In this document: positions 24,042 to 40,954 of the stretch, piece by piece
Numbering within the stretch: the first letter of the stretch is position 1
Layout of the letters: each line of letters opens with the position of its first letter
Assembly: GCA_037139975.1 (NCBI GenBank)
Contig: JBAXFJ010000001.1
Span: 48,586-112,585, forward strand
Direction: 5' to 3'
Source: a bacterium
Lineage (GTDB): Bacteria; Patescibacteriota; Minisyncoccia; Phycocordibacterales; SBAW01
DNA: 64,000 bases
Notes under the pieces: model-generated
The model's input: the letters and a program-made list of their open reading frames with translations, nothing else
Database searches by the model: none
What the model was told of the DNA's origin: nothing
Program-made: the position numbers and the translations under genes

Positions 24042-24116
24042 TGGGTGGCTACAGGGAATCGAACCCTGATCGAGAGCTCCACAAGCTCCAGTGTTGACCG
24101 TTACACCATAGCCACC
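24042..24116 (-). tRNA. tRNA-His (anticodon GTG) with encoded G-1
   Basis: Manual fold: 8-bp acceptor stem including G-1:C73, U8, D-stem GTGT/ACAC, anticodon loop TTGTGGA, T-loop TTCGATT. CCA is only partly encoded. Confidence 0.85.
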
Positions 24117-25266: not shown

Positions 25267-25285
25267 GTGCCCGGGAGAGGACTCG
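25267..25285 (-). repeat. 19-nt fragment identical to the 3' end of tRNA-Leu (putative distal att repeat)
   Basis: gtgcccgggagaggactcg matches 29680..29698 within tRNA-Leu, in the same orientation and 4.4 kb away. Confidence 0.6.
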
Positions 25286-25351
25286 GTCACAGATACTTTC
25301 TCGGCTCAGAAATTTCTGCGACCCCGCCTCAGTCACCTTCGCTCCTTCCGG
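25285..25351 (-). promoter_or_regulatory. Conserved intergenic module, copy a (upstream of cax)
   Basis: GGTCACA(A/G)AT - palindrome - TTCGCGACCCC..CTC... - TCGCTCC..CCGG. Copies b and c are at 31172 and 31391. Confidence 0.4.
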
Positions 25352-25366
25352 CCTTCGAGTCCTACG

Positions 25367-25414
25367 ACCAAAAAGTTAAAACCGGCACAAGGCCGGTTCT
25401 CAACTTTTCGGTGC
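25367..25414 (-). terminator. Copy of the tRNA-Leu trailer hairpin (AACCGGC-acaag-GCCGGTT plus T-run)
   Basis: 48-nt identity with 29635..29682. Reads as a terminator on the minus strand. Confidence 0.5.
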
Positions 25415-25770
25415 TGTAATTATACACTTTGCGCGAACCTTTTTCGAGCGGAAACTGGACGAATGAACCGAAGCCCCACGCACTGGCGAGTACGCCAGCA
25501 ACCCCGAAAGAAAAAATACTCCTTGCATTTCTGATTTGGCGGGGGTGAAATTTTTCTTGAAAAAGGAAAGGGTGTTTTTCTTTCGGGGTTCTGCCCTCCA
25601 AGTATTCGGGCAGTGCGTGGGGCTTCAATACGGACTCGGCAAAGCGAAAATCTGTTTTTCTGGAGAAAAGGATTTTTCGCTTTGCCTCGACTGATTTTCC
25701 GCCCGCAGGAGGGGTCTGGGGAGGAATGCGGGCGGGAATCCCAATTCGCTTTTTCGGAAAATTTTCCGCC
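25415..25770 (+). repeat. Repeat X (356 bp), copy 1, with nested perfect palindromes
   Basis: Perfect inverted copy at 27261..27616. Internally GAAGCCCCACGCACTG...CAGTGCGTGGGGCTTC (16 bp) encloses AACCCCGAAAGAAAAA...TTTTTCTTTCGGGGTT (16 bp). Track ORF 25362..25628 lies inside it. Confidence 0.7.
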
Positions 25771-25772
25771 CT

Positions 25773-26459
25773 CTAAGAATTAGCAGAAATTTTTCTTGGA
25801 AAGAGTTTACAAAAAATAAGTCCGAAAATTAAACCAGATAAATGTCCCCAATTATCAATTTCAAATGAATCTAACGCCTTTTTGTTTTCAGCAAAGCTGA
25901 AAATCAAAAATAAAAAGATGATCATACCAAAACCTAGTAGATATTCTTTGAATGTTAATTTTGGTATGTCTAACAAGTAAGCAGCGGCTAAACCAAATAA
26001 TCCAGCGGAAGCTCCTGCTGATACCATTGGGTTAGAAAAGAAAAATATTGAAATTGATGAGAGTACTCCACTAAAAATAAAGATTGACAAAAAACGACCA
26101 GCTTTTACGTTTCTTTCATAAAGCGACAATATTCCCAAGAATGATAAATTTGTCCATAGATGTAATAAGTTAAGGTGTATAAAATTGTGTGTGATTGTTT
26201 GTACGAACCACCAAGGAGTAAACGTGTATAAATTATTTACACCTAAAATTACAAACCAATTTTCATTCAACTCATTAAAAGTTCCACTAGAAAGGACGAA
26301 GAAAGTAACGATCAAAAGTATACCCAACCAGAATGTTGCTTGAATTTTTTTGAAACTTTCCCAATAACCTGGTATTTTGGCTTGTAAATCGTTAGGACTG
26401 GGTCGTAAGAAAAAAAGAGTAATGGTCCATACAAGTATGGTTAATAAAAACAGCGTCAT
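25773..26459 (-). CDS. Rhomboid-family intramembrane serine protease
   Basis: Six-TM protein with a GASAGLFGL (GxSx) motif and NWGHLSGLIFG (catalytic His). Confidence 0.65.
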   Translation of the reverse strand: MTLFLLTILVWTITLFFLRPSPNDLQAKIPGYWESFKKIQATFWLGILLIVTFFVLSSGTFNELNENWFVILGVNNLYTFTPWWFVQTITHNFIHLNLLHLWTNLSFLGILSLYERNVKAGRFLSIFIFSGVLSSISIFFFSNPMVSAGASAGLFGLAAAYLLDIPKLTFKEYLLGFGMIIFLFLIFSFAENKKALDSFEIDNWGHLSGLIFGLIFCKLFPRKISANS

Positions 26460-26462
26460 ATT

Positions 26463-26906
26463 TTAAGAAGACTTAGAAAGTAGAAATTCTCTTGTCTTGT
26501 CATCTAATTTTGCGAGCTTCTCAACCCCCTTTAGTTGTGCGTTAAGAATAAGTTTTCTACCGTTAGAAAAAACTAATTGCAAAGGAGCTTGCAGAAATCC
26601 CTTGCCAAGTTTCATTTTTGAAATTTCAGCATAAGAGAAAAAATTGTATGTTTCTGGCTTACCCCATAAACTTAGTTTATGAAGATGCATGCCGTTATTT
26701 GTAACTCCAACATAATAGATTCGCATACCAAAAAACATAAACGGACCAATCAAAAAGAACCACCAAATTGGAGGTGTGTAAGACGCTTGGAAAAAACCAA
26801 TTAGTTCTTCTCCTTGATTAAGACGTGGCAAGATAATATCGCTTTTAATTTGTTCTTTAGTCATATTTTTTATTAGGTAATAATTAAATTTATTTCTTTT
26901 CGACAA
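26463..26906 (-). CDS. Hypothetical membrane-associated protein (bacterial PH-domain-like)
   Basis: 147 aa with a central hydrophobic hairpin (PPIWWFFLIGPFMFFGMRIYYVG). Confidence 0.45.
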   Translation of the reverse strand: MSKRNKFNYYLIKNMTKEQIKSDIILPRLNQGEELIGFFQASYTPPIWWFFLIGPFMFFGMRIYYVGVTNNGMHLHKLSLWGKPETYNFFSYAEISKMKLGKGFLQAPLQLVFSNGRKLILNAQLKGVEKLAKLDDKTREFLLSKSS

Positions 26907-26948
26907 CGCTATTCATAAGTCTACCCCCCCCCGACACTTTTGCAATAC

Positions 26949-27155
26949 TCATTTTATCAAATCGTCAACGCTAATCTCAAGGGCTTTCGCGACCTTTTTT
27001 AGTGTTTCTAGTGTCGGGTTTTTATTTTCTCCAGACTCCATTTTGATAAGCGTATTATTGGCGACATCGGCCAGTCTTGCCAACTTCTCTTGCGAAAGCC
27101 CTTTGGCTTCCCTTAATCGCTTTATATTGTTTGATAAATTTTGGCTTGTTGACAT
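26949..27155 (-). CDS. XRE-family helix-turn-helix transcriptional regulator
   Basis: IKRLREAKGLSQEKLARLADVANNTLIKMESGENKNPTLETLKKVAKAL is a classic Cro/C1-type HTH. 68 aa. Confidence 0.75.
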   Translation of the reverse strand: MSTSQNLSNNIKRLREAKGLSQEKLARLADVANNTLIKMESGENKNPTLETLKKVAKALEISVDDLIK

Positions 27156-27260
27156 ATTACCATTAAGAGATTAACATTATAGTAGAGGTATCCATTTACC
27201 TGTTACTACTATGATGTTACACCAAAATTTTAAACAAATCAATATGTGGAATCTTTTTGT

Positions 27261-27616
27261 GGCGGAAAATTTTCCGAAAAAGCGAATTGGGATTCCCGCC
27301 CGCATTCCTCCCCAGACCCCTCCTGCGGGCGGAAAATCAGTCGAGGCAAAGCGAAAAATCCTTTTCTCCAGAAAAACAGATTTTCGCTTTGCCGAGTCCG
27401 TATTGAAGCCCCACGCACTGCCCGAATACTTGGAGGGCAGAACCCCGAAAGAAAAACACCCTTTCCTTTTTCAAGAAAAATTTCACCCCCGCCAAATCAG
27501 AAATGCAAGGAGTATTTTTTCTTTCGGGGTTGCTGGCGTACTCGCCAGTGCGTGGGGCTTCGGTTCATTCGTCCAGTTTCCGCTCGAAAAAGGTTCGCGC
27601 AAAGTGTATAATTACA
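27261..27616 (-). repeat. Repeat X, copy 2 (inverted relative to copy 1)
   Basis: Reverse complement of 25415..25770. Contains track ORF 27211..27708. Confidence 0.7.
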
Positions 27617-27664
27617 GCACCGAAAAGTTGAGAACCGGCCTTGTGCCGGTTTTAACTTTTTGGT
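27617..27664 (+). terminator. Trailer hairpin copy 2 (inverted orientation), shared junction between repeats X and Y
   Basis: Reverse complement of the 48-nt core at 25367..25414 and 29635..29682. Confidence 0.5.
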
Positions 27665-27910
27665 GTCTGTATTGTACCAAACTCGCACCTATTTCCAAAA
27701 CAAAGTGAGGTAATGACTTCGCACGCTCCGCGTGCGTGGTGACTTGAAACTAAATCGTACGCTCGGATTCTGCGCGCCTCGTCCGCTCCCTGCGGTCGCG
27801 GGAGCAAAAACCAAAAATTTTCCTTCCTTAATTTTAGATTTTCGGCGGGGGGTGTGGGGGGAGCCGACAAAAAATGGAAAGGAAATTTTTGGTTTTGCTT
27901 CGCCGTTTCA
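27665..27910 (+). repeat. Repeat Y (about 246 bp), copy 1, highly structured
   Basis: Inverted copy at 29385..29634. Internal ~21-bp stem AAAACCAAAAATTTTCCTTCC / GGAAAGGAAATTTTTGGTTTT plus hairpins CGCACGC-TCCG-CGTGCG and GCTCCC-N9-GGGAGC. Confidence 0.7.
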
Positions 27911-28140
27911 GTCTCCGAAAAGAGCATCATTATTTTATCATATTTTGATTGCTCTTTTCTCCGCCCTCACGGCGAGACGAGGCGCTTCCTCTCAGCGTTT
28001 GGTGGTAGTTTGAAACTCTGTGTCTTCGGTGACTGGTGGTGATAAACCAAGAAAGCGGAACCTCGCCATACAAAATTCTTTAAGGAATGGCGAGGCACAA
28101 ATCTATATGTGCTTGACCCACCCTCCCGTTCGCGCACAAC

Positions 28141-28183
28141 AATCCCCGCCGTTTTTAGGAAAAATTATAAAACGGCGGGGATT
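28141..28183. terminator. 15-bp perfect-stem hairpin downstream of the pilin gene
   Basis: AATCCCCGCCGTTTT-taggaaaaattat-AAAACGGCGGGGATT. Confidence 0.5.
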
Positions 28184-28209
28184 GCTCCCTTGAAAACCGA
28201 AACTACTAA

Positions 28210-28716
28210 CTACCAAGAGCTACATGCAGGTTCTCCACTGCATATCATCCATGCCCATGTCGGACGAACGGGGTCATAAAACGCCTGTCCTGAACTCGGA
28301 AAACTTTCAGGTCCATTTGCATGCGAGAGTAATTTATAATTTGTTCCATTAGACTGGTAAAGAAATCCAGACCAGCCACTCGTGTCACCACTCGGATCAG
28401 CAGGTAAAACCGAAATATATGTCGGGGTCAATCCGGGAATATAAGCATTTGCACCGCTTGTGGTTCGACTTCCGCCGTTGGCGCTCAATCCATACCAAAC
28501 GCCACTTGTTGATGGATACGAATTATTACTGTCCAGATAAAGTTCAAGTGCTGTTTGTAGTTGTTTCAGCTCCGATTTACGATAAGCATCTCTAGCTTTC
28601 CCTCTTGCACTGTTTAAGCTCGCGAGAACAACACTTGAAAGTATTCCGATGATAGCAATGACGACAAGAAGTTCGATGAGTGTAAAACCTTTTGAATTGT
28701 TTTTTTGTAAAAACAT
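28210..28716 (-). CDS. Type IV pilin (prepilin with N-terminal methylation motif)
   Basis: KGFTLIELLVVIAIIGILSSVVLASL is the class III signal peptide / pilin N-terminus. Confidence 0.8.
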   Translation of the reverse strand: MFLQKNNSKGFTLIELLVVIAIIGILSSVVLASLNSARGKARDAYRKSELKQLQTALELYLDSNNSYPSTSGVWYGLSANGGSRTTSGANAYIPGLTPTYISVLPADPSGDTSGWSGFLYQSNGTNYKLLSHANGPESFPSSGQAFYDPVRPTWAWMICSGEPACSSW

Positions 28717-28726
28717 AATTGAAATA

Positions 28727-29068
28727 TTAAAATCGTTCCTGCAAGCGCGGCGGCGCGTTTTCAGGATAGATTATTTTTTGACCCGGAGGTGCTTCGAGTT
28801 TCGCTTTGCTTCCTCCGCCACTAAACAGAAAAATAATCACGACAATAATCGCCACCGCTACAAATCCAATCAAAACATAATTTGCCTGCTTTTCGTCTTT
28901 GATATATCCGCCGGAATACTTGATGACCCACTGAACTATTTTGGGCGTTGGCGTTTGAAAAGATCGAGGTCGTTGAAACTCCTCGCCCTCAAACACTATT
29001 TTCCCCGGTTCGTTGTTTTGGTCCATAACTTTATAAAAAGTGTTGTTGCAGATTTTAGTTTTCCACAA
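28727..29068 (-). CDS. Hypothetical single-TM membrane protein
   Basis: 113 aa with a C-terminal TM helix (VLIGFVAVAIIVVIIFLF). Confidence 0.45.
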   Translation of the reverse strand: MWKTKICNNTFYKVMDQNNEPGKIVFEGEEFQRPRSFQTPTPKIVQWVIKYSGGYIKDEKQANYVLIGFVAVAIIVVIIFLFSGGGSKAKLEAPPGQKIIYPENAPPRLQERF

Positions 29069-29116
29069 CTATTTTAATTGTATCACTTACGCCCCCCCCG
29101 CAAACGAAAAAGGGGG

Positions 29117-29323
29117 CTACTTCAACAACTTATCCACTGAAACGCCGAGCGCTTGCGCCAATCGTTCCAATTGCTGGATAGTGATGTTTTTCTTGCCATT
29201 CTCGATTGCACTCATATAACTTCTGTCCATATCTAACTTACGACAAATATCGCCTTGCGACATTTTACGGCGAAGCCGTATCTGTTTGATATTCTGTCCG
29301 AGTTTTTTGGAAATTTGAGCCAT
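29117..29323 (-). CDS. XRE-family helix-turn-helix transcriptional regulator
   Basis: IKQIRLRRKMSQGDICRKLDMDRSYMSAIENGKKNITIQQLERLAQAL. 68 aa; paralogous in architecture to 26949..27155. Confidence 0.75.
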   Translation of the reverse strand: MAQISKKLGQNIKQIRLRRKMSQGDICRKLDMDRSYMSAIENGKKNITIQQLERLAQALGVSVDKLLK

Positions 29324-29384
29324 ATTTTAGATATCCACAGTTTAGCAATTATTGCTTTTTTATTCCATATGGTATTATAGTTCC

Positions 29385-29634
29385 ATATGACAACGGCGAA
29401 GCAAAACCAAAAATTTCCTTTCCATTTTTTGTCGGCTCCCCCCACACCCCCCGCCGAAAATCTAAAATTAAGGAAGGAAAATTTTTGGTTTTTGCTCCCG
29501 CGACCGCAGGGAGCGGACGAGGCGCGCAGAATCCGAGCGTACGATTTAGTTTCAAGTCACCACGCACGCGGAGCGTGCGAAGTCATTACCTCACTTTGTT
29601 TTGGAAATAGGTGCGAGTTTGGTACAATACAGAC
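29385..29634 (-). repeat. Repeat Y, copy 2 (inverted)
   Basis: Reverse complement of 27665..27910. Confidence 0.7.
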
Positions 29635-29677
29635 ACCAAAAAGTTAAAACCGGCACAAGGCCGGTTCTCAACTTTTC
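29635..29677 (-). terminator. Intrinsic terminator directly 3' of tRNA-Leu (original copy of the trailer hairpin)
   Basis: On the minus strand: GCACC-gaaaagttgag-AACCGGC-cttgt-GCCGGTT-TTAACTTTTT. Confidence 0.55.
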
Positions 29678-29763
29678 GGTGCCCGGGAGAGGACTCGAAC
29701 CTCCACGCCCGTGAGGGCTTATCCACCTCAAGGATAAATGTCTACCAATTTCAACACCCGGGC
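29678..29763 (-). tRNA. tRNA-Leu (anticodon GAG), long variable arm
   Basis: Manual fold: acceptor GCCCGGG/CCCGGGC, anticodon stem TATCC/GGATA with loop TTGAGGT, variable stem CCC-tcac-GGG, T-loop TTCGAGT, discriminator A. Confidence 0.85.
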
Positions 29764-31250: not shown

Positions 31251-31285
31251 CTTTCTCGCCCCTCGGATAAATGCTATCGCATTTG

Positions 31286-31358
31286 TGCGCGGTGAGGGGC
31301 TCGAACCCCCGACCTTCTCTGTGTAAAAGAGTTGCTCTACCAACTGAGCTAACCGCGC
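31286..31358 (-). tRNA. tRNA-Val (anticodon TAC)
   Basis: Manual fold: acceptor GCGCGGT/ACCGCGC, D-arm GCTC-AGTTGGTA-GAGC, anticodon loop TTTACAC, T-loop TTCGAGC. CCA is not encoded. Confidence 0.85.
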
Positions 31359-31390
31359 ATTATTGTTTGTTTTGTGCCTTTTGCACACTT

Positions 31391-31479
31391 GGTCACAAAT
31401 ACATTTCTGACGAAATGTTTCGCGACCCCACCTCGCGGTTTTTGCCTTTCGCTACGCTCAAACAAAAACATCGCTCCGG
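31391..31479 (-). promoter_or_regulatory. Conserved intergenic module, copy c (between tRNA-Arg and tRNA-Val)
   Basis: GGTCACAAAT-ACATTTCTGACGAAATGT-TTCGCGACCCCACCTCGCGGT...CATCGCTCCGG. Confidence 0.4.
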
Positions 31480-31529
31480 TTCACAAACGCTAAAAAAGTA
31501 AACCAATTTACTTTTTCTTAACGCGTTTG

Positions 31530-31601
31530 TGCCCCCGCGAGGAATCGGACCTCGATAGCCGGCTTAGAAGTCCGGAGTTCTATCCATTAAACTACAGGGG
31601 C
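31530..31601 (-). tRNA. tRNA-Arg (anticodon TCT)
   Basis: Manual fold: acceptor GCCCCTG/CGGGGGC (U6-G67), anticodon loop CTTCTAA, T-arm CGAGG-TCCGATT-CCTCG. Confidence 0.8.
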
Positions 31602-33183: not shown

Positions 33184-33648
33184 ATGGCAGATGGGACTAT
33201 TTCCTGGCAGGTAGCAACACACACGCACTATGAACGCTCGCCCGACTGGTATTGGACACTCGGCGTTGTGGCAGTGGTGGGTGCGGGCATCTCCATCTAT
33301 TTCAGCAACATGCTTTTTGCGCTCATCTTGTTGATTGGCGCAAGCTCGGTCGGCATGCTCGTGGCGCGTGGACCGCGCGAACACCTCGTCTCGCTTGGTG
33401 CGCGCGGCGTTTCGATGGACGGAACACTCTACCCTTACGAATCGGTACAGTCGTTTTGGGTCGAACAGCACGTTGAGACCCCTCGACTTTTTTTGACCAC
33501 ATCAAACTTTCTACACCCACACATCATCATCCCGCTTGATTCCGTCGCACACGGTGAAGAAGTGCGTGGCCACCTCGCACAATATGCCGAAGAAACAGAG
33601 CGCCTCCCCCGCTTTAGCGAAGAGGTCGCAGAAATCTTCGGATTGTAG
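33184..33648 (+). CDS. Hypothetical 2-TM membrane protein
   Basis: Track ORF 32827..33648 trimmed to the Met at 33184 (MADGTISWQ...); the upstream part would overlap tRNA-Ser and ruvX. Confidence 0.45.
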   Translation: MADGTISWQVATHTHYERSPDWYWTLGVVAVVGAGISIYFSNMLFALILLIGASSVGMLVARGPREHLVSLGARGVSMDGTLYPYESVQSFWVEQHVETPRLFLTTSNFLHPHIIIPLDSVAHGEEVRGHLAQYAEETERLPRFSEEVAEIFGL

Positions 33649-33662
33649 TAGTGTGTTGATAC

Positions 33663-33737
33663 GCTCCCGTCGTTCAACGGATAGGACGCATCCTTGCGGA
33701 GGATGCAATGTAGGTTCGATTCCTGCCGGGAGCACCA
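33663..33737 (+). tRNA. tRNA-Arg (anticodon GCG), CCA encoded
   Basis: Manual fold: acceptor GCTCCCG/CGGGAGC, anticodon stem CATCC/GGATG with loop TTGCGGA, T-arm GTAGG-TTCGATT-CCTGC, 3' end ACCA. Confidence 0.8.
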
Positions 33738-33831
33738 AGTAGGAAATTGCAAGGTGGAGCTCGCCGCCGCGTCGGACGCGGCGGCTCGCGCGTACTGTGT
33801 TTTGGGCTCGAATTCAAATTGGCGATTTCGC
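33732..33831 (+). repeat. IR1-left: 100-bp perfect terminal inverted repeat, starting inside the tRNA-Arg 3' end
   Basis: gcaccaagtaggaaattgcaagg...ggcgatttcgc. Exact reverse complement at 35257..35356. Contains the GC palindrome GCCGCCGCG-tcgga-CGCGGCGGC. Confidence 0.8.
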
Positions 33832-35201
33832 AGAGAATGGTTCGCGCCGATGTTTTTCAGAAATGCTGTCATTCCGCTCAAGTCATTGTGGGAAAGCAGA
33901 TTCGCGGCTTGATTCAAGGACTTTACAAACTCACGAGCTGGTTCGAGCCAAGACACGCCCCTTTGTTCGATGTCGGTGATTTTTTCCTCAACCCTCACTT
34001 TTTGAGATATGAGGATATTCTTTTTGGCGGCGTACTCTGCTGTGGATAGCGCGTCGGCGAGGTAGAGGTTGAGCAACTTTTCTAGTTGGTTGTCCAGTGT
34101 GGTGAGTTCGGTTTTCAAGTTCTCCGCTTCTAGCTTTGCCTCCTCTTTTGCTTTCGTTTCCTCGCTCTCCAACGCCGCCAAAACTTTCTGCGTGTCTTGG
34201 CTCGATAAAGAAACTTTTTGCAGAAACGATTTGATTTGGTTTTCAAGCACATCTTCGCGCAAATATTTCTCGGTACATGCGCCTCGTTTTTTGGTACAGC
34301 GATAGTAGGTGTAGATTCCGCCGTTTCCTTTTGCATATTGCGCTGTAATGCTTGCTCCGCACGAGGCGCACTTCATTAGTCCGAGAAATGCGAATTTGTG
34401 CTTTTTCGTTTCGTGTGTGTTGCCGCGCTTGCTCATCATTTCTTGGCATAAATCAAAAAGTTTCTTTGCAACCAACGGCTCGTGAGTTCCCTCAAAGATT
34501 TCCGCCTTGTATCTCATCAGGCCGATGTAGAACGGATTTTGTAGAATATGCTGAACATTGCTTAATGACACGGGGTTGTTCGCGTTCGTTTTGAGGTCTT
34601 GTTCGGCGCACCAATTTGCGAGAGATTTTAGCGTGTAAGCTCCAGTGGAATACAGTTCGAATAGTTTTTGTACTTTTGGAGCGTTGATGCTGTCCACGTC
34701 AATTCCCCGTGTCTTGGGGTTGTTTATGTATCCCACCGGAGCCCAACCGGGCCAGACGCCGTTCCGTATCTTTTGCCGCAAACCTCGTTTTACGTTTTCT
34801 CGCAAATTGTCGGAGAAATATTTGCTCTGTCCAAAAGCAATATTCAGCATGAACAAACCTTGTGGCGTTGGTTCAAACCAGTGGGTCGGAAATTTGAGGG
34901 AACGAATCAAGCCGCGATCCACCATGTGGATTATCTTGCCCCCGTCTACTGAATTACGCGCGAGACGGTCGGGGTGCCAAGATATGATGCCGTCTGCTTT
35001 CCCACGCTCAATGAATGACAGCATTTCTGCGAACCCTGTTCGCCCGGGCTCTTTTGCGGTTTTCGCCTCGTAGAACGAGGCGACAATATCAAATTTTTCT
35101 TTGGCGGAATACGAAAAAAGCTCAGCAAGCTGAGCTTGGATGCTTAGGACTTGGCGGTCATCTTCTTCGGTGCTTTTCCTTGCGTAGATTACATATTTCA
35201 T
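33832..35201 (-). CDS. Large serine recombinase (resolvase/integrase family); 3' end uncertain
   Basis: MKYVIYARKSTEEDDRQVLSIQAQ... is the catalytic-Ser N-terminus (S10). A recombinase domain, Cys4 zinc ribbon (CASCGAS...CTKKRGAC) and coiled coil follow. The ORF stays open through IR1-left and the tRNA antisense down to 33435. Confidence 0.8.
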
Positions 35202-35256
35202 ATCTCGTTGTGATTACTTGCTAAAGGAATGCCAAAAAGTTTTCTTTTTCCCGAAA

Positions 35257-35356
35257 GCGAAATCGCCAATTTGAATTCGAGCCCAAAACACAGTACGCGC
35301 GAGCCGCCGCGTCCGACGCGGCGGCGAGCTCCACCTTGCAATTTCCTACTTGGTGC
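35257..35356 (-). repeat. IR1-right (inverted copy of 33732..33831)
   Basis: Perfect 100-bp match. Includes cctacttggtgc, the antisense of the tRNA-Arg 3' end. Confidence 0.8.
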
Positions 35357-35449
35357 AGGATACTTGAATTAGTGCGAACCAGCTTCCGCGCCGCCGAAGG
35401 CGGCGCAAACCCCCCGCAGAAAATGCAGGCGGCGAAGCCGCACCGCTCG
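35353..35449 (+). repeat. IR2-left: about 97-bp perfect inverted repeat abutting IR1-right
   Basis: gtgcaggatacttgaattagtgcgaacc...gccgcaccgct. Reverse complement at 36418..36513. Contains GCGCCGCC-gaag-GCGGCGC. Confidence 0.8.
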
Positions 35450-35587
35450 AAAACCGCAAAAGAGCCCGGTGAAAAACATCGGCGCAAACCATTCTCTTTC
35501 GGTGCGGGCGAAGCCCGCTCTGAATTTGTTTCGGGAAAAAGAAAACTTTTTGTCATACAATTTATTTATTAACTCGTTGCTAATTTT

Positions 35588-36340
35588 ATGAATCGAGGAT
35601 TTGCGAACATTGCTTTGATAATCGCTCTAGTCGTTGCCATTATTGGCGGCGCAAGTTATTGGGCTTGGTCGCAAAAGTCGAGCGCGCCTGAAACTTCCGC
35701 AACGACTAAACTGCCAAGTCCACAGCCGAAACCGAACGTAACGAATCAAGTTTCAAATCAGCCAATAAAAACGCAGTACGATGTTGAAACTGATGGTGGA
35801 TTTGGGAATGTTTGCGGAACGTCAACCCAGAGACTTGTGCGAGCGACGTTCGATGGTAAAAAATGGGCCACCACAACACTCTCGGAGTTAGGAACACCAG
35901 GGAAAGACGCCCCACTTTACTGGTTCTTTTCAGCTCCCACAAAAAGCAATCTAATTTTCTTAGGTTCTGCGCATTGTTTTACTGAAGGCGGAGGAGGTGG
36001 TATTTGGTCTTACAGTCTAAAAACCGGTGCGCTCGATGCACTGAGCTTTCCCTACGGCAACCGAGCTCCCACCGATGTATCGCCAGATGGTGCAAGAGTC
36101 GTACAAGTACAAGCGGACATACGGTCTGAAAATCAGACTCTGAGTCTTCTTGACCTCGTCAAAAATACTTCCACTGTGTTGGTGACACTTCCGCAGGGAA
36201 AACATTTTGAGTTTGGTTGCGAACCACTTTCTCCTTGTACGACATCCTCATTACACTGGGTAGATAATTCAACGGTCGAGTACAGTGTCTATGAATCTTC
36301 GCAGACTCCAATAGAGACACATCGGATCAACCTTCCGTAG
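35588..36340 (+). CDS. Hypothetical secreted protein (N-terminal signal/TM anchor)
   Basis: 250 aa. Sole gene between IR2-left and IR2-right. Confidence 0.5.
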   Translation: MNRGFANIALIIALVVAIIGGASYWAWSQKSSAPETSATTKLPSPQPKPNVTNQVSNQPIKTQYDVETDGGFGNVCGTSTQRLVRATFDGKKWATTTLSELGTPGKDAPLYWFFSAPTKSNLIFLGSAHCFTEGGGGGIWSYSLKTGALDALSFPYGNRAPTDVSPDGARVVQVQADIRSENQTLSLLDLVKNTSTVLVTLPQGKHFEFGCEPLSPCTTSSLHWVDNSTVEYSVYESSQTPIETHRINLP

Positions 36341-36417
36341 AACTTCTAATTTCAAAGAACGATGGTGCGTGCTCCGCACGCGCGTACCTAGTCCGCCAAA
36401 GAAAAATTTGATATTGT

Positions 36418-36513
36418 CAGCGGTGCGGCTTCGCCGCCTGCATTTTCTGCGGGGGGTTTGCGCCGCCTTCGGCGGCGCGGAAGCTGGTTCGCACTAATTC
36501 AAGTATCCTGCAC
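36418..36513 (-). repeat. IR2-right
   Basis: Reverse complement of 35353..35449. Confidence 0.8.
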
Positions 36514-36524
36514 AGATTAAAAAG

Positions 36525-36549
36525 AAAAATCCCCATTCCGGGGATTTTC
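36525..36549. terminator. Bidirectional hairpin AAAATCCCC-attcc-GGGGATTTT
   Basis: Lies between IR2-right and the rpsT stop. Confidence 0.6.
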
Positions 36550-36567
36550 TGATTTATGTAAAGACTT

Positions 36568-36837
36568 TTATTTAGAAACCTTGAGCATTTTTGCCACACT
36601 TGCCTTGCGGCGAGCCGCGGTGTTCTTCTTTATTACCCCGCGCTTGAGCGCCTTGTCGATTGCTTTGTATGCCGTGGCGAGGGCCACGACTCCTTCTTTG
36701 CCTGCGCCCGTGCCAGCTTCCTTAACTGCGCGGACACCTTTAATACCTGCACGCATAGCCAACTTGCGCCCGATATTCATCGACTTTTTGCGCAGCGACT
36801 GGCGATGCGCCTTCTTTGCTCCTCTGGTGATTGCCAT
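36568..36837 (-). CDS. rpsT: 30S ribosomal protein S20
   Basis: MAITRGAKKAHRQSLRKK... Confidence 0.9.
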   Translation of the reverse strand: MAITRGAKKAHRQSLRKKSMNIGRKLAMRAGIKGVRAVKEAGTGAGKEGVVALATAYKAIDKALKRGVIKKNTAARRKASVAKMLKVSK

Positions 36838-36900
36838 AGAAAGAGATTACCCTACCCCGCCCCAAAAGACAAGTTTCTCCTTACCTTGTATAGTTATCGC

Positions 36901-37494
36901 ATGATAGGAAAACTCACGGGCCAGTTTGGCGGCACCACACTCGAAGAGTGTGTGGTTGTGGACGTCGCGGGCGTCGGGTATGTTGTGCGGGTCCCCACCG
37001 CGACCCGAGAATGGTGCGTCAAAGCCCATAAGGACCCGGTCTTGGGACTCCTCTCACTCTATATACACACCGCAGTGCGCGAAGACGCCATCGACCTCTA
37101 TGGTTTCCCCACCGAAGCAGAGCTCAGCTTTTTTAAACAGCTCATGAGCGTCTCGGGCATCGGCCCAAAAACTGCGTTGGGGATTTTTGACAAGGCCGAC
37201 GTGAGCGGGCTCGAGAGAGCCATCCGCGCAAGCGACATGGCGACGCTCACCAACGCATTTGGTATCAGCAAAAAGCTCGCCGAGCGCCTGGTGGTTGAGC
37301 TGCGCGACAAAATCAAAGCCACCACCCCCTCGCACGATGCGTTGCAGGCACAAGGCAAAAATAATGACGCTGAGGTCATCGAGGCGCTCATGGCGCTGGG
37401 CTACAATGCCGCCGAGAGTCGCGCCGCACTCAAGAACATTCCTCCTGCCGAGGATATGCGCGAGCGCCTGGGCAAAGCACTCAGAAATATATGA
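36901..37494 (+). CDS. ruvA: Holliday junction branch-migration protein RuvA
   Basis: MIGKLTGQF...VDVAGVGYVVRV...LMSVSGIGPKTALGI. Confidence 0.9.
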   Translation: MIGKLTGQFGGTTLEECVVVDVAGVGYVVRVPTATREWCVKAHKDPVLGLLSLYIHTAVREDAIDLYGFPTEAELSFFKQLMSVSGIGPKTALGIFDKADVSGLERAIRASDMATLTNAFGISKKLAERLVVELRDKIKATTPSHDALQAQGKNNDAEVIEALMALGYNAAESRAALKNIPPAEDMRERLGKALRNI

Positions 37495-38807
37495 AATCTT
37501 TCATCAAAAAACTCATTCCCCAAAAGCTGCTCGAACTCTACCACCTGGCGTTCGCCTATGGCGGCGCAGCGTGGTATCGCTTTCCTTCCCGCACGCTTTT
37601 TGTGATAGGCATCACCGGCACTAAAGGCAAGTCGACCACATCAGAACTTGTCGCTGCTGTTTTGAGAGAAGCTGGGCACACGGTTGCAGTGGCTTCGACT
37701 ATCCATTTTGAAATTGATGCGGCTGATGGCTGTGGTAATCACACGAGCACGCGCGAGCCAAACTTGTTTAAAATGACAATGCCTGGGCGCGCCTACCTGC
37801 AAAAATTTATGCGCCGCGCAGTCGACGCAGGCTGCACTCACGCGGTCATCGAGATGACCTCGGAAGGCGCACGACAATTTCGCCACAAAGGCATTGCACT
37901 CGACGCGCTTGTCTTTACCAACCTGCAGCCTGAACACATCGAGTCACACGGCAGCCTTGAGGCGTATGCTGCGGCAAAGCTTTCGCTCGCACAAAGCCTC
38001 GAGCACTCGCCCAAGCGCCCACGCATCATGGTCGCGAACGCCGACGATGCGTACGGCGAGAAGTTTCTGGAGACAGACGTCGAGCTGCGCGTGCCATTTT
38101 CTCTGCATGATGCCGACCCATGCACCGTCGACGACACCAGCATGCGCTTTTTGTATAAACCTGCCGGCCATTCTGGCGGGAAAGGTGAATTATTTACTGT
38201 ACCGTTGCCCGGCCTCTTTAACCTGAGAAATATTTTAGGCGTACTGGCTTTGGGTGACGCAATGCACATCTCTCTTGCGACCATGAAACGCGCGCTCGAG
38301 CACATCGCTCCTGTTGCGGGCCGTGCCGAACGTGTTGAACGAGGACAGAGTTTTGCTGTGGTGGTTGATTATGCACACACGCCTGACTCATTGCGGGCGC
38401 TCATAGAAGCGTATCGGCCTCCTGAAAAAGAAGAGGCTCTGAAAAGAAAAATAATTTGTATTATGGGTTCGACTGGTGGCGGCCGCGACCAGTGGAAGCG
38501 CCCACTCATGGGGAAAATTGCTGACGAGCTGTGCGACAGCGTCTATCTGACCAACGAAGACCCCTATGACGAAGATCCACAGAAAATAGTGACTGCTATC
38601 AAAGCGGGCTTCACCACACAAACGCCACACGTCGTGCTCGACCGCCGCGAGGCCGTTCGCGCAGCACTGAAAGAAGCGCGCGAGGGTGATGTGGTTTTAA
38701 TCACCGGCAAAGGCACCGACCCCTATATCATGGGCCCCCACGGCTCAAAACAAGACTGGAGCGACAAGCGAGTTGCTGAGGAAGAACTGGATAACTTGCT
38801 TCACTAA
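37491..38807 (+). CDS. Mur-ligase-family protein (MurE-like; no N-terminal domain)
   Basis: GITGTKGKSTT P-loop, Mur-ligase central and C-terminal domains (DYAHTPDSL). Confidence 0.7.
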   Translation: MKSFIKKLIPQKLLELYHLAFAYGGAAWYRFPSRTLFVIGITGTKGKSTTSELVAAVLREAGHTVAVASTIHFEIDAADGCGNHTSTREPNLFKMTMPGRAYLQKFMRRAVDAGCTHAVIEMTSEGARQFRHKGIALDALVFTNLQPEHIESHGSLEAYAAAKLSLAQSLEHSPKRPRIMVANADDAYGEKFLETDVELRVPFSLHDADPCTVDDTSMRFLYKPAGHSGGKGELFTVPLPGLFNLRNILGVLALGDAMHISLATMKRALEHIAPVAGRAERVERGQSFAVVVDYAHTPDSLRALIEAYRPPEKEEALKRKIICIMGSTGGGRDQWKRPLMGKIADELCDSVYLTNEDPYDEDPQKIVTAIKAGFTTQTPHVVLDRREAVRAALKEAREGDVVLITGKGTDPYIMGPHGSKQDWSDKRVAEEELDNLLH

Positions 38808-38835
38808 TATCCCAAAAGTACGATACTATACACGC

Positions 38836-39069
38836 ATGGCAGGAGGAGAAGACAAACCAGCACCCATGAACCCTTGGGAGCCTGTGCTTTTGCTTGTGGG
38901 GGCTTTAATCATTGGTACGGTGTTGATCTGGCAACGTGGTGGATTCTCGGGCGTACGAAGCGCTGGCAGCGTTCTGATCAACCCACCCCAAACAAATACT
39001 ATTGAGCCCAATACACAAACAACACCAACAGACGCCTCAAGCACTCAAACAACACAGCCAACGCCTTAA
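38836..39069 (+). CDS. Small hypothetical membrane protein
   Basis: MAGGEDKPAPMNPWEPVLLLVGALIIGTVLIW..., trimmed from track ORF 38773..39069. Confidence 0.3.
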   Translation: MAGGEDKPAPMNPWEPVLLLVGALIIGTVLIWQRGGFSGVRSAGSVLINPPQTNTIEPNTQTTPTDASSTQTTQPTP

Positions 39070-39087
39070 TCACCCAACACTATAGAC

Positions 39088-39489
39088 ATGCTCAACCCGT
39101 TCCCCCACTTGCTCAACTATGGTTTTTTTGCGCCGACGCTTTTGCGCGTGACCGTGGCGTGCCTTATGTTCTTTATTGCACAACAGGCGTGGCTCGGAGC
39201 AAAAACTATTGCGGCAATACCCTTTCCTCTGGTTGGAAAAACAAAACCCTGGGTGATACACATTGCCGCAGGCATCACCGCGCTCGTGGGACTTACTCTG
39301 TTTTTTGGATACAACACCCAGTGGGCCGCACTGGTGGGCATCCTCATTGCAATCAAGCTCACTTATTTTAGAAAACAGCTCGGACAAACCATCGGGCTTC
39401 CTGTTTTAGCATATGCTTTTTTGGTTATACTCTGCGCATCGCTTCTCCTCACGGGCGCAGGAGCACTCGCGTTTGACCTGCCGTTGTAA
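39088..39489 (+). CDS. Hypothetical 4-TM membrane protein
   Basis: 133 aa, hydrophobic. Confidence 0.45.
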   Translation: MLNPFPHLLNYGFFAPTLLRVTVACLMFFIAQQAWLGAKTIAAIPFPLVGKTKPWVIHIAAGITALVGLTLFFGYNTQWAALVGILIAIKLTYFRKQLGQTIGLPVLAYAFLVILCASLLLTGAGALAFDLPL

Positions 39490-39509
39490 AAATACGAGGC
39501 GGTGGTAGT

Positions 39510-39992
39510 TTGTGGAGGCATATGATTTTAATTCTCCACAACATTCGCAGTGTCCATAATGTGGGCTCAATTTTTCGTACTGCAGATGCAGCAGGTGTCT
39601 CTCGCATCATCCTGTCGGGATATACCCCAACCCCGCTCGACCGTTTTGGCCGCGAACGCAGCGACTTTGCGAAGGTGTCGTTGGGCGCCGAAAAAACCGT
39701 TGCTTGGACTCAGGTGAAGACACTTGGGGCAACGCTCACAAAACTTAAAAAAGAGCATTGCTGCGTTGTGGCAATTGAGCAAGACAAGCGCTCGGTTCCC
39801 CTCTTTGGTTTCACCCCACACAAAGAACAAGAGTTGGTGGTCATTGTGGGAAACGAAGTGCGCGGCATCTCAAAACCACTGCTCAAAAAGTGCGACGCCA
39901 TTCTCGAGATCCCCATGCACGGCACAAAAGAATCACTCAACGTCTCGGTCACCGCCGGCATCGCCCTGTTCGTGCTCACCCAAAAAATCTAA
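39510..39992 (+). CDS. SpoU-family (TrmH/TrmL-like) RNA 2'-O-methyltransferase
   Basis: ...IRSVHNVGSIFRTADAAGV... and ...VIVGNEVRGIS...ILEIPMHGTKESLNVSVTAGIALFVL form the SPOUT knot. Confidence 0.8.
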   Translation: MWRHMILILHNIRSVHNVGSIFRTADAAGVSRIILSGYTPTPLDRFGRERSDFAKVSLGAEKTVAWTQVKTLGATLTKLKKEHCCVVAIEQDKRSVPLFGFTPHKEQELVVIVGNEVRGISKPLLKKCDAILEIPMHGTKESLNVSVTAGIALFVLTQKI

Positions 39993-40052
39993 TTTGGTCC
40001 GCCCTGTTGAAATTCGTAAATAGAACCATTGTCTGCTATACTACAAAGGTAT

Positions 40053-40125
40053 CCGCCCATAGCTCAGTTGGTAGAGCAATTCCCTTTTAAGGAAGTGGTC
40101 CTTGGTTCGAATCCAAGTGGGCGGA
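40053..40125 (+). tRNA. tRNA-Lys (anticodon TTT)
   Basis: Manual fold: acceptor CCGCCCA/TGGGCGG, U8, D-arm GCTC-AGTTGGTA-GAGC, anticodon loop CTTTTAA, T-arm CTTGG-TTCGAAT-CCAAG, discriminator A. CCA not encoded. Confidence 0.85.
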
Positions 40126-40126
40126 C

Positions 40127-40954
40127 ATGAATGATTTCAGACAGCAGTGCATTGAACTAAGAGACAAAGACTACACACTTCCTGAAATTGTGCGCATGAC
40201 GGGAAGAGCAAAGAGTTCGGTCTATTTCCATATACGGAACCTTCCACTCAGCGCACTGAAACAGCAAAATATTAAGGAACGCTCTCGGAAACAGGCGTCA
40301 CAAATCGCCCTCGCGAGAAAAGGGAAAAGTATTCGTATCTTTCGGCCTTTTTCAACATGGGACGTACCGACCGTATGTCTTGTGTCCCACCTGCTTTTTG
40401 ACGGAGAAGTAAATAATCGTGGATGTACCTATAATAATAGAAATATTTCGTTACTAAAACGCGTAGAGGCGTGCATGAAGGGAGTGTATGATTTTGAACC
40501 AAAGAAGTATAAAAATACATTAACTGGCGTACTACGAATTAGTTATTACAACGTTGCCTTGGGCGCATATATGCAACAGAAATCTTTGCAACTACTCGAT
40601 GAGATTGTTGAAGCGCCGAAAGAACTCAAGCGTGAATTCCTTCGAGCGTTTTTTGATGACGAAGGATGTATGGACTTTAGACCAAAAGAGAGACGGCGAG
40701 GAGTGCGCGGGTATCAAAAAAATACCAGGATATTAAAGAGTATACAAACACTTCTCGCAGATTTTTACATTACCGCAACACTCAAACTCCCCAATGAAGT
40801 TGTGGTTACCGGTAAAAATAACCTTCAAAAGTTCCAACAAGAAATCAACTTTTCTCCAGGAATTTTTATAAACGGAGAACGATCAAACAGTATTTGGAAA
40901 GAAAATTTAGAGAAACGAGAATTACTCATTCGCGCACTCAATTCGTTCAAGTAA
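40127..40954 (+). CDS. Free-standing LAGLIDADG-type (double-motif) endonuclease-like protein with N-terminal HTH
   Basis: Two LAGLIDADG-like motifs (HLLFDGEVNNRG and AFFDDEGCMD). The start is 2 nt after the tRNA-Lys 3' end. Confidence 0.55.
   Translation: MNDFRQQCIELRDKDYTLPEIVRMTGRAKSSVYFHIRNLPLSALKQQNIKERSRKQASQIALARKGKSIRIFRPFSTWDVPTVCLVSHLLFDGEVNNRGCTYNNRNISLLKRVEACMKGVYDFEPKKYKNTLTGVLRISYYNVALGAYMQQKSLQLLDEIVEAPKELKREFLRAFFDDEGCMDFRPKERRRGVRGYQKNTRILKSIQTLLADFYITATLKLPNEVVVTGKNNLQKFQQEINFSPGIFINGERSNSIWKENLEKRELLIRALNSFK

Follow-up and report, generated by a model that had tools for sequence, protein, structure and literature searches.

A probable tRNA-targeting element of Patescibacteria in which a large serine recombinase and a cargo gene each lie between inverted attachment arms

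How does the gene for a large serine recombinase (LSR) come to lie between perfect inverted repeats that begin inside a tRNA gene, and why does one copy of the tRNA terminus reappear, inverted, on the far side of that gene? These questions arise at positions 33,663 to 36,549 of a 64-kb stretch of patescibacterial DNA (here called the window). There, tRNA-Arg(gcg) is followed by the recombinase gene within a first inverted repeat (IR1) and, directly abutting it, by a single cargo gene within a second (IR2). The analysis given here suggests that 33732-36513 is probably one integrated element of 2.8 kb, run by the LSR and inserted at the tRNA's 3' end. We refer to the arms of IR1 as A arms and to those of IR2 as E arms; the coordinates of all features are collected in the table.

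The repeats themselves are largely as first described. The initial annotation, made from the letters alone, had reported an IR1 of 100 bp that matched at all 100, began inside the tRNA-Arg and overlapped IR2 by 4 nt, and a repeat finder together with ARAGORN bears out each of these points. The A arms are 100 nt long, they start 6 nt before the tRNA's 3' end as called by ARAGORN and Rfam, and the 4 nt that they share with IR2 read GTGC. IR2 does bracket a single gene, as had been claimed; its arms, given earlier as 97 and 96 nt, measure 95 nt each. Both arm pairs are 100% complementary, a figure that could conceal a few differences because de Bruijn assemblers merge near-identical repeats. Probes of 21 nt from each arm matched solely at the two arm positions in the whole window, where 0 matches were expected by chance.

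The window derives from a short-read metaSPAdes contig (NODE_6_length_247420 of ENA assembly ERZ4222710). Here, the reads offer a view that does not pass through that assembly. Logan unitigs of run SRR12676966 cover 35418-36448 and 36484-40089, and each breaks off precisely 30 nt (k-1) into an IR2 arm, which means that IR2 genuinely exists in the read graph. The unitig on the side of rpsT has no branch at the border between flank and arm.

Is the arrangement peculiar to this contig? Relatives of the recombinase were collected from 49 loci of species-representative genomes and several more from metagenomes (numbered here with the letter L), and dozens of independent assemblies repeat one layout: from flank to tRNA, first one cargo gene between two E arms and then the recombinase between two A arms. 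Among the 37 loci with at least 250 nt on each side, an A-type inverted repeat brackets the recombinase gene, including its tail, in 32, and a convergent tRNA stands at the tail in 26. The repeat overlaps the 3' end of the ARAGORN-called tRNA by 2-5 nt, commonly 5, in 18 loci. An abutting E-type pair, enclosing 0.6-1.7 kb, is found in 18 of the 23 loci with enough upstream sequence; A and E pairs overlap by 0-11 nt, mostly by 2-4 nt. At least 15 different tRNAs serve as targets, among them those for Arg, Leu, Val, Gly, Lys, Glu, Ser, Ala, Phe and Pro. Identity of the two arms is not obligatory, the A arms of L005 being about 90% identical and the arms of L060 77%, with different hairpin variants. 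RNAalifold gave no consensus structure for a mixed alignment of A arms, in which the subfamilies misalign, and hairpins were judged sequence by sequence.

The assemblies that show this layout were built with IDBA, MEGAHIT and SPAdes in various projects (a few bins are labelled as other phyla, possibly through mis-binning), so that neither an assembly artefact nor a recent one-off inversion can account for it. The missing stop codon of the recombinase had been taken as a hint of a recent inversion or rearrangement; that suggestion fails on the identical layout of most related loci in independent assemblies. The fallback of the initial annotation, an ordinary remnant of an integrase at a tRNA, likewise does not describe an element that is intact and unusually organized. 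The element appears to be widespread in Patescibacteria, and no description of it was found in the searchable literature.

The protein encoded in the first module is a genuine LSR that falls outside every named family. It has a resolvase catalytic domain (PF00239, residues 4-150, E 2.3e-21, with YARKSTEE at residues 6-13), a Recombinase domain (PF07508, E 6.9e-17) and a zinc ribbon (PF13408, E 1.9e-11), and a charged, heptad-like stretch occupies approximately residues 335-400 of the translation. The closest solved structures are the integrases of SPbeta (9dxh, E 8e-10) and A118/LI (4kis, E 2.5e-8). NCBIfam returns sub-threshold matches alone, to CcrB, XisF, CcrA and CcrC, with CcrB at 107 bits against a cut-off of 900. 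A search of IMG/VR recovered no relatives, and hence no sign of a phage origin.

Where does this protein end? Its open frame (33435-35201, minus strand) encodes 588 aa, meets no stop before IR1 and continues through the antisense strand of the tRNA. Two explanations had been offered: that the repeat encodes the C-terminus, or that a sequence error has removed the stop. The homologues decide for the former. The set used here comprises the best 120 of thousands, 70-92% identical to the window protein and drawn from many lineages of Patescibacteria. Most of them pass the point of entry into IR1 through a common tail, ...RNREFVFTPK...L-x-F-P-x-W-C, and then diverge. Past W-C, 69 of the 120 run into the translated antisense of a tRNA T-arm (x-S-N-x), 20 stop within 3 residues, and 8 enter sequence that matches the IR2 arm of the window or the arms of its tRNA-Leu island, considered below.

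In the window, the minus strand of the tRNA-side A arm encodes residues 458-490 (33 aa, RNRQFEFEPK...LQFPTWC), and the codons of the terminal W-C, TGG TGC, are the antisense of the GCACCA of the tRNA. The frame of this tail is open in all 19 of a set of diverse arms, four coordinate offsets being allowed, and the other frames contain stops in 14 and 8 of the 19. By this comparison, the run-on reading frame is a trait of the family and no error. If the A arm is part of an attachment (att) site, then the gene ends inside its own att site, and its stop codon would be supplied by the DNA beyond the crossover. At its other end, the recombinase gene also holds a terminator-like hairpin (35118-35137, minus strand; an 8-bp stem, then a T-run) on the sense strand over codons 22-30, which may act as an attenuator.

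The case for att sites rests on the junctions. That between tRNA and A arm reads CCGGGA-GCAC-CAAGTAGG; that between E and A arms, on the reverse strand, GTATCCT-GCAC-CAAGTAGG; and that between E arm and flank, GTATCCT-GCAC-AGATT. Once all are written in a single orientation, the GCAC core has one polarity at tRNA/A, E/A and E/trailer. The junctions can thus be read as an attL (tRNA/A), an attR (E/trailer) and, between them, an intact attP-like site (A/E) in inverted orientation, and the predicted attB would be a tRNA ending in GCAC joined to an A-rich trailer. Because the internal attP-like junction is inverted with respect to attL and attR, a tRNA terminus appears inverted beyond the recombinase gene. 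Further, the GCAC found around the composite occurs once more at the internal A/E junction, as expected of a shared crossover core and not of a target-site duplication.

What distinguishes the two halves of such a site? The outer approximately 25 nt of the E arms mimic the T-arm of a tRNA in antisense, with GGTTCG and GAAT motifs. Measured from GTTCG to the junction, the distance in the E arm exceeds that in the tRNA at its own locus by 5 bp in 17 of 20 loci and by 4 bp in the other 3 (the script gave 15 of 20 as +5; two outliers, in which an earlier motif had been matched, were re-read by eye). In serine integrases, the motifs of attB bound by the zinc ribbon domain lie 5 bp closer to the centre than those of attP (Rutherford et al. 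2013, PMC3783163). By that measure, the tRNA half behaves as an attB-type half and the E-arm half as an attP-type half. In subfamilies that target tRNA-Ser, the arm tip is CCGCCA in place of GCACCA, so the tip matches the end of the target tRNA. Every printed flank of the related loci has an E-type arm as the neighbour of the upstream A arm, and these flanks contain neither an A/trailer nor a tRNA/E junction. This fits a single polar site of two halves, unlike two transposons that insert independently.

The tRNA genes of the window speak to the same rule. None of those outside the Arg element (at 24043, 29678, 31285, 31529, 33022 and 40053) has an encoded CCA. The vacant ones finish in ...GCAC followed by AAA, and solely the occupied tRNA-Arg(gcg) has GCACCA, which it obtains from the A arm. 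Four of the seven tRNA genes (Val, Arg(tct), Leu and Arg(gcg)) end in GCAC, and these are therefore potential targets for this subfamily of the element. An Rfam scan of the window reported tRNAs alone.

Is there a site without the element? Relatives of the locus were located through rpsT, and in two of them, L068 (rpsT 91% identical) and L061 (88%), the rpsT terminator and the A-rich trailer are the same as in the window. In both, the trailer is joined via GCAC straight to the 3' end of tRNA-Arg(ccg), and no element is present at that tRNA. The flank in the window is thus a genuine tRNA trailer, with the crossover at GCAC. The initial annotation had proposed a search of related genomes for tRNA-Arg loci that lack the element; L068 and L061 supply such an empty site, at tRNA-Arg(ccg).

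In L061, a tRNA-Arg(gcg) that is 98.7% identical to the window copy lies approximately 180 nt beyond tRNA-Arg(ccg). Beside it (L061 5400-5581) are a 38-nt GCAC...GTGC quasi-palindrome and then a pseudo-tRNA 3' end interrupted by a hairpin. The quasi-palindrome resembles a collapsed pair of A arms and, with the pseudo-tRNA end, looks like the scars of earlier activity of an element. In another group, L062-L067 (rpsT 97% identical), GTGC and then a glycosyltransferase gene follow the terminator; a crossover product was considered here, and the match was left as a possible coincidence.

Has the element moved? Its DNA is 85-88% identical to copies in L004, L005, L059 and L060, in which the flanking housekeeping genes are just 66-72% identical, and close copies occupy either tRNA-Arg(gcg) or tRNA-Arg(tct), depending on the genome. 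These comparisons indicate movement between sites and between lineages.

The order of tRNA genes also varies. tRNA-Val(tac) and tRNA-Arg(tct) stand in tandem in the window (31285-31601); in L004 (858-943) they are convergent, with an element between them and tRNA-Val 9 nt from its E arm. The arrangement in L004 could be a recombinase-linked inversion of a tRNA gene.

How might such an element work? One module would be an A arm, the recombinase gene and an A arm; the other, an E arm, one cargo gene and an E arm. The arms would be att half-sites fused to terminator-like hairpins. Each junction would unite a tRNA-like half and an A-type half across a short polar core, here GCAC. Either an authentic tRNA 3' end or an E arm with its T-loop mimic could serve as the tRNA-like half, and either an A arm or a native trailer as the A-type half. 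Crossover in the core would be catalysed by the LSR, and the excised form would be a circle with two inverted copies of attP. Integration, excision or exchange at the junctions would build arrays such as the tRNA-Leu island. In its simplest form, array growth would proceed by repeated insertion at the tRNA/A junction, which needs product sites to stay reactive. The terminator-like hairpins of the A arms point into the recombinase module and those of the E arms point out of the cassette, so the arms would also insulate each module transcriptionally. A single-stranded circle that anneals its two attP copies was considered as well, and was set aside by logic, as its recombination with the chromosome would leave broken ends capped by hairpins.

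The tRNA-Leu island, 4 kb away, obeys the same junction rule. Its inverted repeats, of 404 nt and 291 nt, have in common a 48-nt unit (A*) that ends 5 nt inside tRNA-Leu. A* separates cassette P, cassette Q and the tRNA from one another, forms a strong hairpin (z -6.0) and translates to ...LTFWC. Each cassette holds three genes, one of them for an XRE-type helix-turn-helix (HTH) protein; the other two encode a rhomboid and a 147-aa protein in P, and a type IV pilin-like protein and a 113-aa protein in Q. The tips of their arms are E-like, with GGTTCGCG or GGTGCGAG approximately 25 nt from the core. Read in this way, the island is an array of alternating A-type units and cassettes that has no recombinase.

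Here, the A* units have a ready, if conjectural, origin. The GC hairpin of the A arm is palindromic, and its copies in the two arms therefore stand as direct repeats; a deletion between them would drop the recombinase and leave a solo A*-type unit, such as is found in L061. The 48-nt units of the Leu island would have arisen by this route.

Other loci connect the two kinds of island. In L056 and L057, the promoter side of a recombinase module is taken up by an E cassette and the tail side by a cassette of type Q or P, and the three-gene cassette of L057 is the same as one in the window. The initial annotation had supposed that the recombinase of the Arg element may serve both islands; the sharing of cassette types with recombinase tails elsewhere speaks for this, and action in trans, by this enzyme or a related one, is plausible. 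In L056 (6560-6796), the Q-type cassette meets, at its distal arm, an A arm of the subfamily that targets tRNA-Ser (core CCGCCA), together with the start of another recombinase gene. Recombinases of two subfamilies can thus share one array, with the two ends of that cassette differing to match its neighbours.

Some features of the Leu island stand apart. A 20-nt direct duplicate of the tRNA-Leu 3' end (GTGCCCGGGAGAGGACTCG, 25267-25286 and 29679-29698) lies approximately 80 nt outside it, beside an A/T-rich trailer and the start of a cation antiporter gene. The duplicate looks like the displaced native end of the tRNA, from an older integration with its crossover inside the tRNA, unlike the LSR junctions. 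The left border of the island was also tried as a pseudo-tRNA half-site and rejected, its motif register being 14 nt against an expected 18. The GC content at 26001-27000, within the first cassette of the island (25771-27260), is 0.337 against approximately 0.51 in the surroundings, consistent with a foreign origin.

We return to the cargo module of the Arg element, where a variable gene sits in a conserved frame. Cargo is unrelated between genomes (a HAD hydrolase, a DKNYY protein, an HNH protein, weak sub-threshold PsbP-like matches); it further includes many secreted or membrane-anchored proteins without a known family, and differs even in closely related elements. The frame runs, in order, E arm, c', b', a small hairpin (0-31 nt), d', cargo, a hairpin of variable sequence and conserved pairing, I3g, E arm. 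The named segments match the recombinase module: I3g corresponds to codons 31-40 of the gene, c' to 46-53, b' to 448-457, and d' to the region upstream of the gene. At the position equivalent to the E arms of the cassette, the intact gene has a hairpin with a 9-bp stem (z -5.2), and at the position equivalent to the A arms of the recombinase module, the cassette has its small hairpin (z -3.9). The cassette frame reads as a gutted, circularly permuted and inverted copy of the recombinase module.

The four inverted segments occupy the same places in every examined locus of the closer subfamilies, with the copies of c and I3 adjoining the two E arms; in a distant subfamily, fragments of the C-terminal region of the recombinase flank the E arms instead. 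Within a locus, segment copies are 98.6% identical (21 mismatches in 1523 nt), and between loci 84-92%. Antisense RNA was considered as a role for these short inverted segments and rejected: the mismatches have no G.U bias on either strand (6 and 8, with 7 neither), which argues against RNA pairing. Segments d and d' may be a shared promoter region; a sigma-70 consensus scan of the two gave no convincing promoter.

The recombinase gene is constrained at the matching places. In a codon alignment of 30 genes, mean synonymous-codon identity is 0.61, with peaks of 0.89-0.98 at codons 29-40 and 443-457 and of 0.85-0.92 at codons 327-335 and 415-420; I3 marks the highest. Most of the peaks fall on segments for which an inverted partner exists in the cassette or within the gene, and segment c has no peak. 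The intragenic partners are two perfect inverted repeats nested inside the reading frame: 33858-33874 with 35013-35029 (17 nt, codons 443-448 and 58-63) and 33943-33958 with 34190-34205 (16 nt, codons 414-419 and 332-337). They coincide, at least partly, with constraint peaks across the 30 homologues, which suggests a conserved long-range structure of RNA or of single-stranded DNA. Synonymous constraint at segments with inverted partners points to functional elements at the level of DNA or RNA inside the reading frame, not to decaying debris.

Several observations weigh against a simple integrative element. The register shift is seen for the tRNA-like half alone; the A arm cannot be classified against the trailers, which are not conserved. 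To our knowledge, a canonical serine integrase neither needs nor carries a second, inverted attP. Arrays require that attL- and attR-type sites be used again, which is forbidden for canonical LSRs in the absence of a recombination directionality factor (RDF), and no candidate RDF gene is present among the open reading frames (ORFs) of the 2.8-kb element. Nor does the integrative model account for the near-exact inverted copies that the cassette frame holds of segments of the recombinase gene. Last, the window joins tRNA-Arg(gcg) to a trailer that in relatives belongs to tRNA-Arg(ccg), which implies at least one extra deletion or non-canonical event, with or after the integration. The agent of that deletion may be the recombinase or homologous recombination between the nearly identical 3' halves of the tRNAs.

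What else might explain the locus? It could be two independent transposon-like units with terminal inverted repeats that inserted successively: an autonomous A-arm LSR unit and an E-arm cassette, resembling a miniature inverted-repeat transposable element, that is mobilized in trans. On excision, each unit would become a circle, its ends forming a perfect palindrome where they are joined. Each module does, of course, own perfect terminal repeats, and cassettes of the P and Q types are found in the Leu island, which has no recombinase, as well as beside recombinase tails in L056 and L057. The modules also seem to have been re-assorted (L005 has an L006-type cassette frame, and the two A arms of L060 differ), and the two look like one backbone opened at two alternative hairpin positions. 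However, the recombinase module is never found alone, its upstream A arm abutting an E-type arm in all printed flanks; E arms are never joined straight to a tRNA; and A and E alternate strictly, as a single polar site of two halves predicts. The cassette frame, moreover, tracks the sequence of its partner recombinase, and no target-site duplication of non-element sequence is present around the terminal repeats of the window element. Successive insertion of two transposons is thus a rather unlikely account, if one to be taken seriously.

A recombinase gene between perfect inverted repeats, each of which contains a complete recombination junction, recalls the Hin and Gin switches, and the initial annotation had likened the locus to a Hin-like invertible segment. 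Here, the recombinase would flip the IR1 or the IR2 segment to change expression. About 8 of roughly 100 homologue tails adjoin an E-, P- or Q-type arm rather than a tRNA, the cassette of L055 lies on the tail side of its recombinase, and synonymous-constraint elements lie inside the 5' part of the recombinase gene, which in hin and gin holds a Fis-bound enhancer. Among the assembled loci, however, every one that can be scored has the same orientation. The recombinase tail is never flipped relative to the tRNA in the 37 assembled loci with enough flank, the cassette frame has one orientation in 14 of 14 loci, and 20 of 21 cassettes have a cargo gene that diverges from the recombinase. Nor would flipping alter a gene product, since the same recombinase is encoded either way and the cassette, with its own d' and terminator-like hairpins, has no obvious output to be switched. 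The enzyme is an LSR of 490 aa, not a small invertase with a C-terminal helix-turn-helix, and its arms are att sites tied to tRNAs, for which relatives provide the empty site. A switch is accordingly improbable. Least credible of all, and in our judgement nearly negligible, is the possibility that the assembler created the structure, or that an ordinary element integrated at a tRNA recently underwent a unique rearrangement. The contig comes from a short-read metagenome, in which segments between repeats that exceed the insert size (404 nt and 291 nt in the Leu island) cannot be oriented and near-identical repeats collapse. Yet the layout recurs in dozens of assemblies from three programs, unitigs built independently from raw reads break exactly at the arm borders, and segments of 20-30 nt, being below the k-mer size, cannot be artefacts of collapse.

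The integrative element may itself be part of something larger, and the following is put forward as a tentative whole, each part of which would have to hold. Patescibacteria would possess an integron-like cassette system run by LSRs. In it, a single half-site that mimics a tRNA would set the identity of the site, and product sites would stay reactive, allowing integration, excision, inversion and array growth without an RDF. The C-terminus of the recombinase and its stop codon would vary with the state of integration. Cassettes would ride on a gutted, permuted and inverted copy of the recombinase module, short segments of which would be kept near-identical to the active gene by a process at the level of DNA that is linked to the long-range inverted repeats inside the reading frame.

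How does the element compare with systems already described? In mechanism it comes nearest to the phage-type serine integrases (A118/LI, SPbeta SprA, Bxb1, phiC31). Like these, it has catalytic, recombinase and zinc-ribbon domains and a short polar core, and one half-site motif lies 5 bp farther out in the site of the element than in that of the host. In contrast, its enzyme is only distantly similar to theirs (E approximately 1e-9 to PDB chains), it targets tRNA 3' ends by T-loop mimicry, and it has 2.8 kb and no RDF gene. Its att arms are perfect inverted repeats of approximately 100 bp, an internal inverted attP is retained, and its recombinase gene ends inside its own att site.

In life-style, the closest systems are the staphylococcal cassette chromosome (SCC) with its Ccr recombinases, the tycheposons and the integrons. 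The SCC/Ccr elements of staphylococci and enterococci are LSR-driven cassettes at the 3' end of a conserved gene, stackable into composite arrays, and it is to CcrB, CcrA and CcrC that the recombinase has its best NCBIfam similarity. Ccr recombinases work without a separate RDF. The element differs in scoring far under the Ccr cut-offs, in targeting tRNA instead of rlmH, and in its cassettes, which hold 1-3 genes between long perfect inverted arms in alternating units of recombinase type and cassette type. The tycheposons of Prochlorococcus are likewise cargo carriers that integrate at tRNA genes and build islands there, a minority of them with an LSR (bioRxiv 10.1101/2020.12.28.424599). Tyrosine recombinases are found in 910 of their 937 elements, partial tRNA direct repeats flank them, they often carry replication genes, and the inverted-arm architecture seen here is not described in that work. 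Integrons are similar in concept: arrays of small gene cassettes, hairpin-forming sites, a site-specific recombinase and a fixed platform. They use, however, a tyrosine recombinase, attI with single-stranded attC, and promoterless cassettes in direct orientation, whereas the element uses an LSR, a tRNA platform, and cassettes with their own upstream region and terminator-like hairpins. The IntI-type tyrosine recombinase that defines integrons is absent from the element, its sole recombinase being of the serine type. Hin, Gin and Cin share with it a serine recombinase gene between inverted repeats that carry the crossover sites. These are small recombinases with 26-bp sites and both orientations, each with a differing output; in the element the orientation is fixed and the repeats are att arms. 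What sets it apart is the combination of T-loop mimicry, inverted att arms of approximately 100 bp, a retained inverted attP, a gene that ends in an att site, and swappable cassettes that can form arrays.

One further ORF of the window deserves mention. It encodes 275 aa (40127-40954, plus strand), begins 1 nt past tRNA-Lys(ttt), has a weak LAGLIDADG_3 match and lies in a stretch of low GC content (0.416). Possibly, then, a further mobile insertion has taken place here behind a tRNA gene, at its 3' end.

Table. Coordinates, in the window, of the element at tRNA-Arg(gcg), its parts and the tRNA-Leu island.
Feature	Position	Strand	Remarks
tRNA-Arg(gcg), target gene	33663-33737	+	last 6 nt (GCACCA) inside A arm, giving encoded CCA
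GCAC core, attL-type junction tRNA / A arm	33732-33735	+	also direct at 36510-36513, inverted at 35353-35356
A arm, tRNA side (IR1 left)	33732-33831	.	10-bp GC hairpin; terminator-like site pointing into element
Large serine recombinase	33732-35201	-	490 aa to W-C; Resolvase, Recombinase, Zn_ribbon_recom domains
Segment b, codons ~448-457	33832-33859	-	inverted copy 35470-35497; strong synonymous constraint
Segment c, hairpin and I3	35044-35111	-	c 35044-35065 (codons 46-53); hairpin ~35066-35086, 9-bp stem; I3 35082-35111 (codons 31-40)
Segment d, directly upstream of recombinase gene	35229-35256	-	inverted copy 35529-35556 upstream of cargo
A arm, non-coding copy upstream of recombinase gene (IR1 right)	35257-35356	.	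terminator-like site pointing into recombinase module
GTGC core, internal A/E junction	35353-35356	.	intact attP-like site, inverted relative to attL and attR
E arm beside recombinase module (IR2 left)	35353-35447	.	GGTTCG T-loop mimic 24 nt from core; outward-pointing terminator-like hairpin
Cassette frame, left	35448-35556	+	c' 35448-35469, b' 35470-35497, small hairpin 35498-35528, d' 35529-35556
Cargo gene, variable part	35588-36340	+	250 aa; N-terminal hydrophobic segment; no Pfam match
Cassette frame, right	36365-36418	+	hairpin 36365-36379, sequence varies, pairing kept; I3g 36389-36418
Distal E arm (IR2 right)	36419-36513	.	ends in GCAC core 36510-36513 of attR-type junction
Flank F, A-rich tRNA trailer and bidirectional terminator ahead of rpsT	36514-36549	.	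homologous to tRNA-Arg(ccg) trailer of close relatives without element there
tRNA-Leu island, recombinase-less array	25367-29682	.	same junction rule
A*, 48-nt quasi-palindrome	25367-25414, 27617-27664 (inverted), 29635-29682		
Cassette P arms	25415-25770, 27261-27616		
Cassette Q arms	27665-27907, 29392-29634		
tRNA-Leu(gag)	29678-29763	-	

The element bears on more than one field. It would be an unusual case of an LSR that recognizes tRNA genes via T-loop mimicry, and through it the 5-bp register model of how attP and attB are told apart can be put to a natural test. For genome engineers, a minimal system that has no RDF and has many natural specificities for tRNA ends (GCACCA, CCGCCA and others) could be of interest. 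From the internal inverted attP one would predict that the recombinase drives inversions and deletions between tRNA genes, and the loss of tRNA-Arg(ccg) at this locus of the window is likely an example of such an event. Patescibacteria, finally, make up a very large, uncultured share of bacterial diversity, and their mobile elements are barely described. Here, an element appears to carry single accessory genes, many of which encode secreted or surface proteins, from one tRNA locus to another and across lineages.

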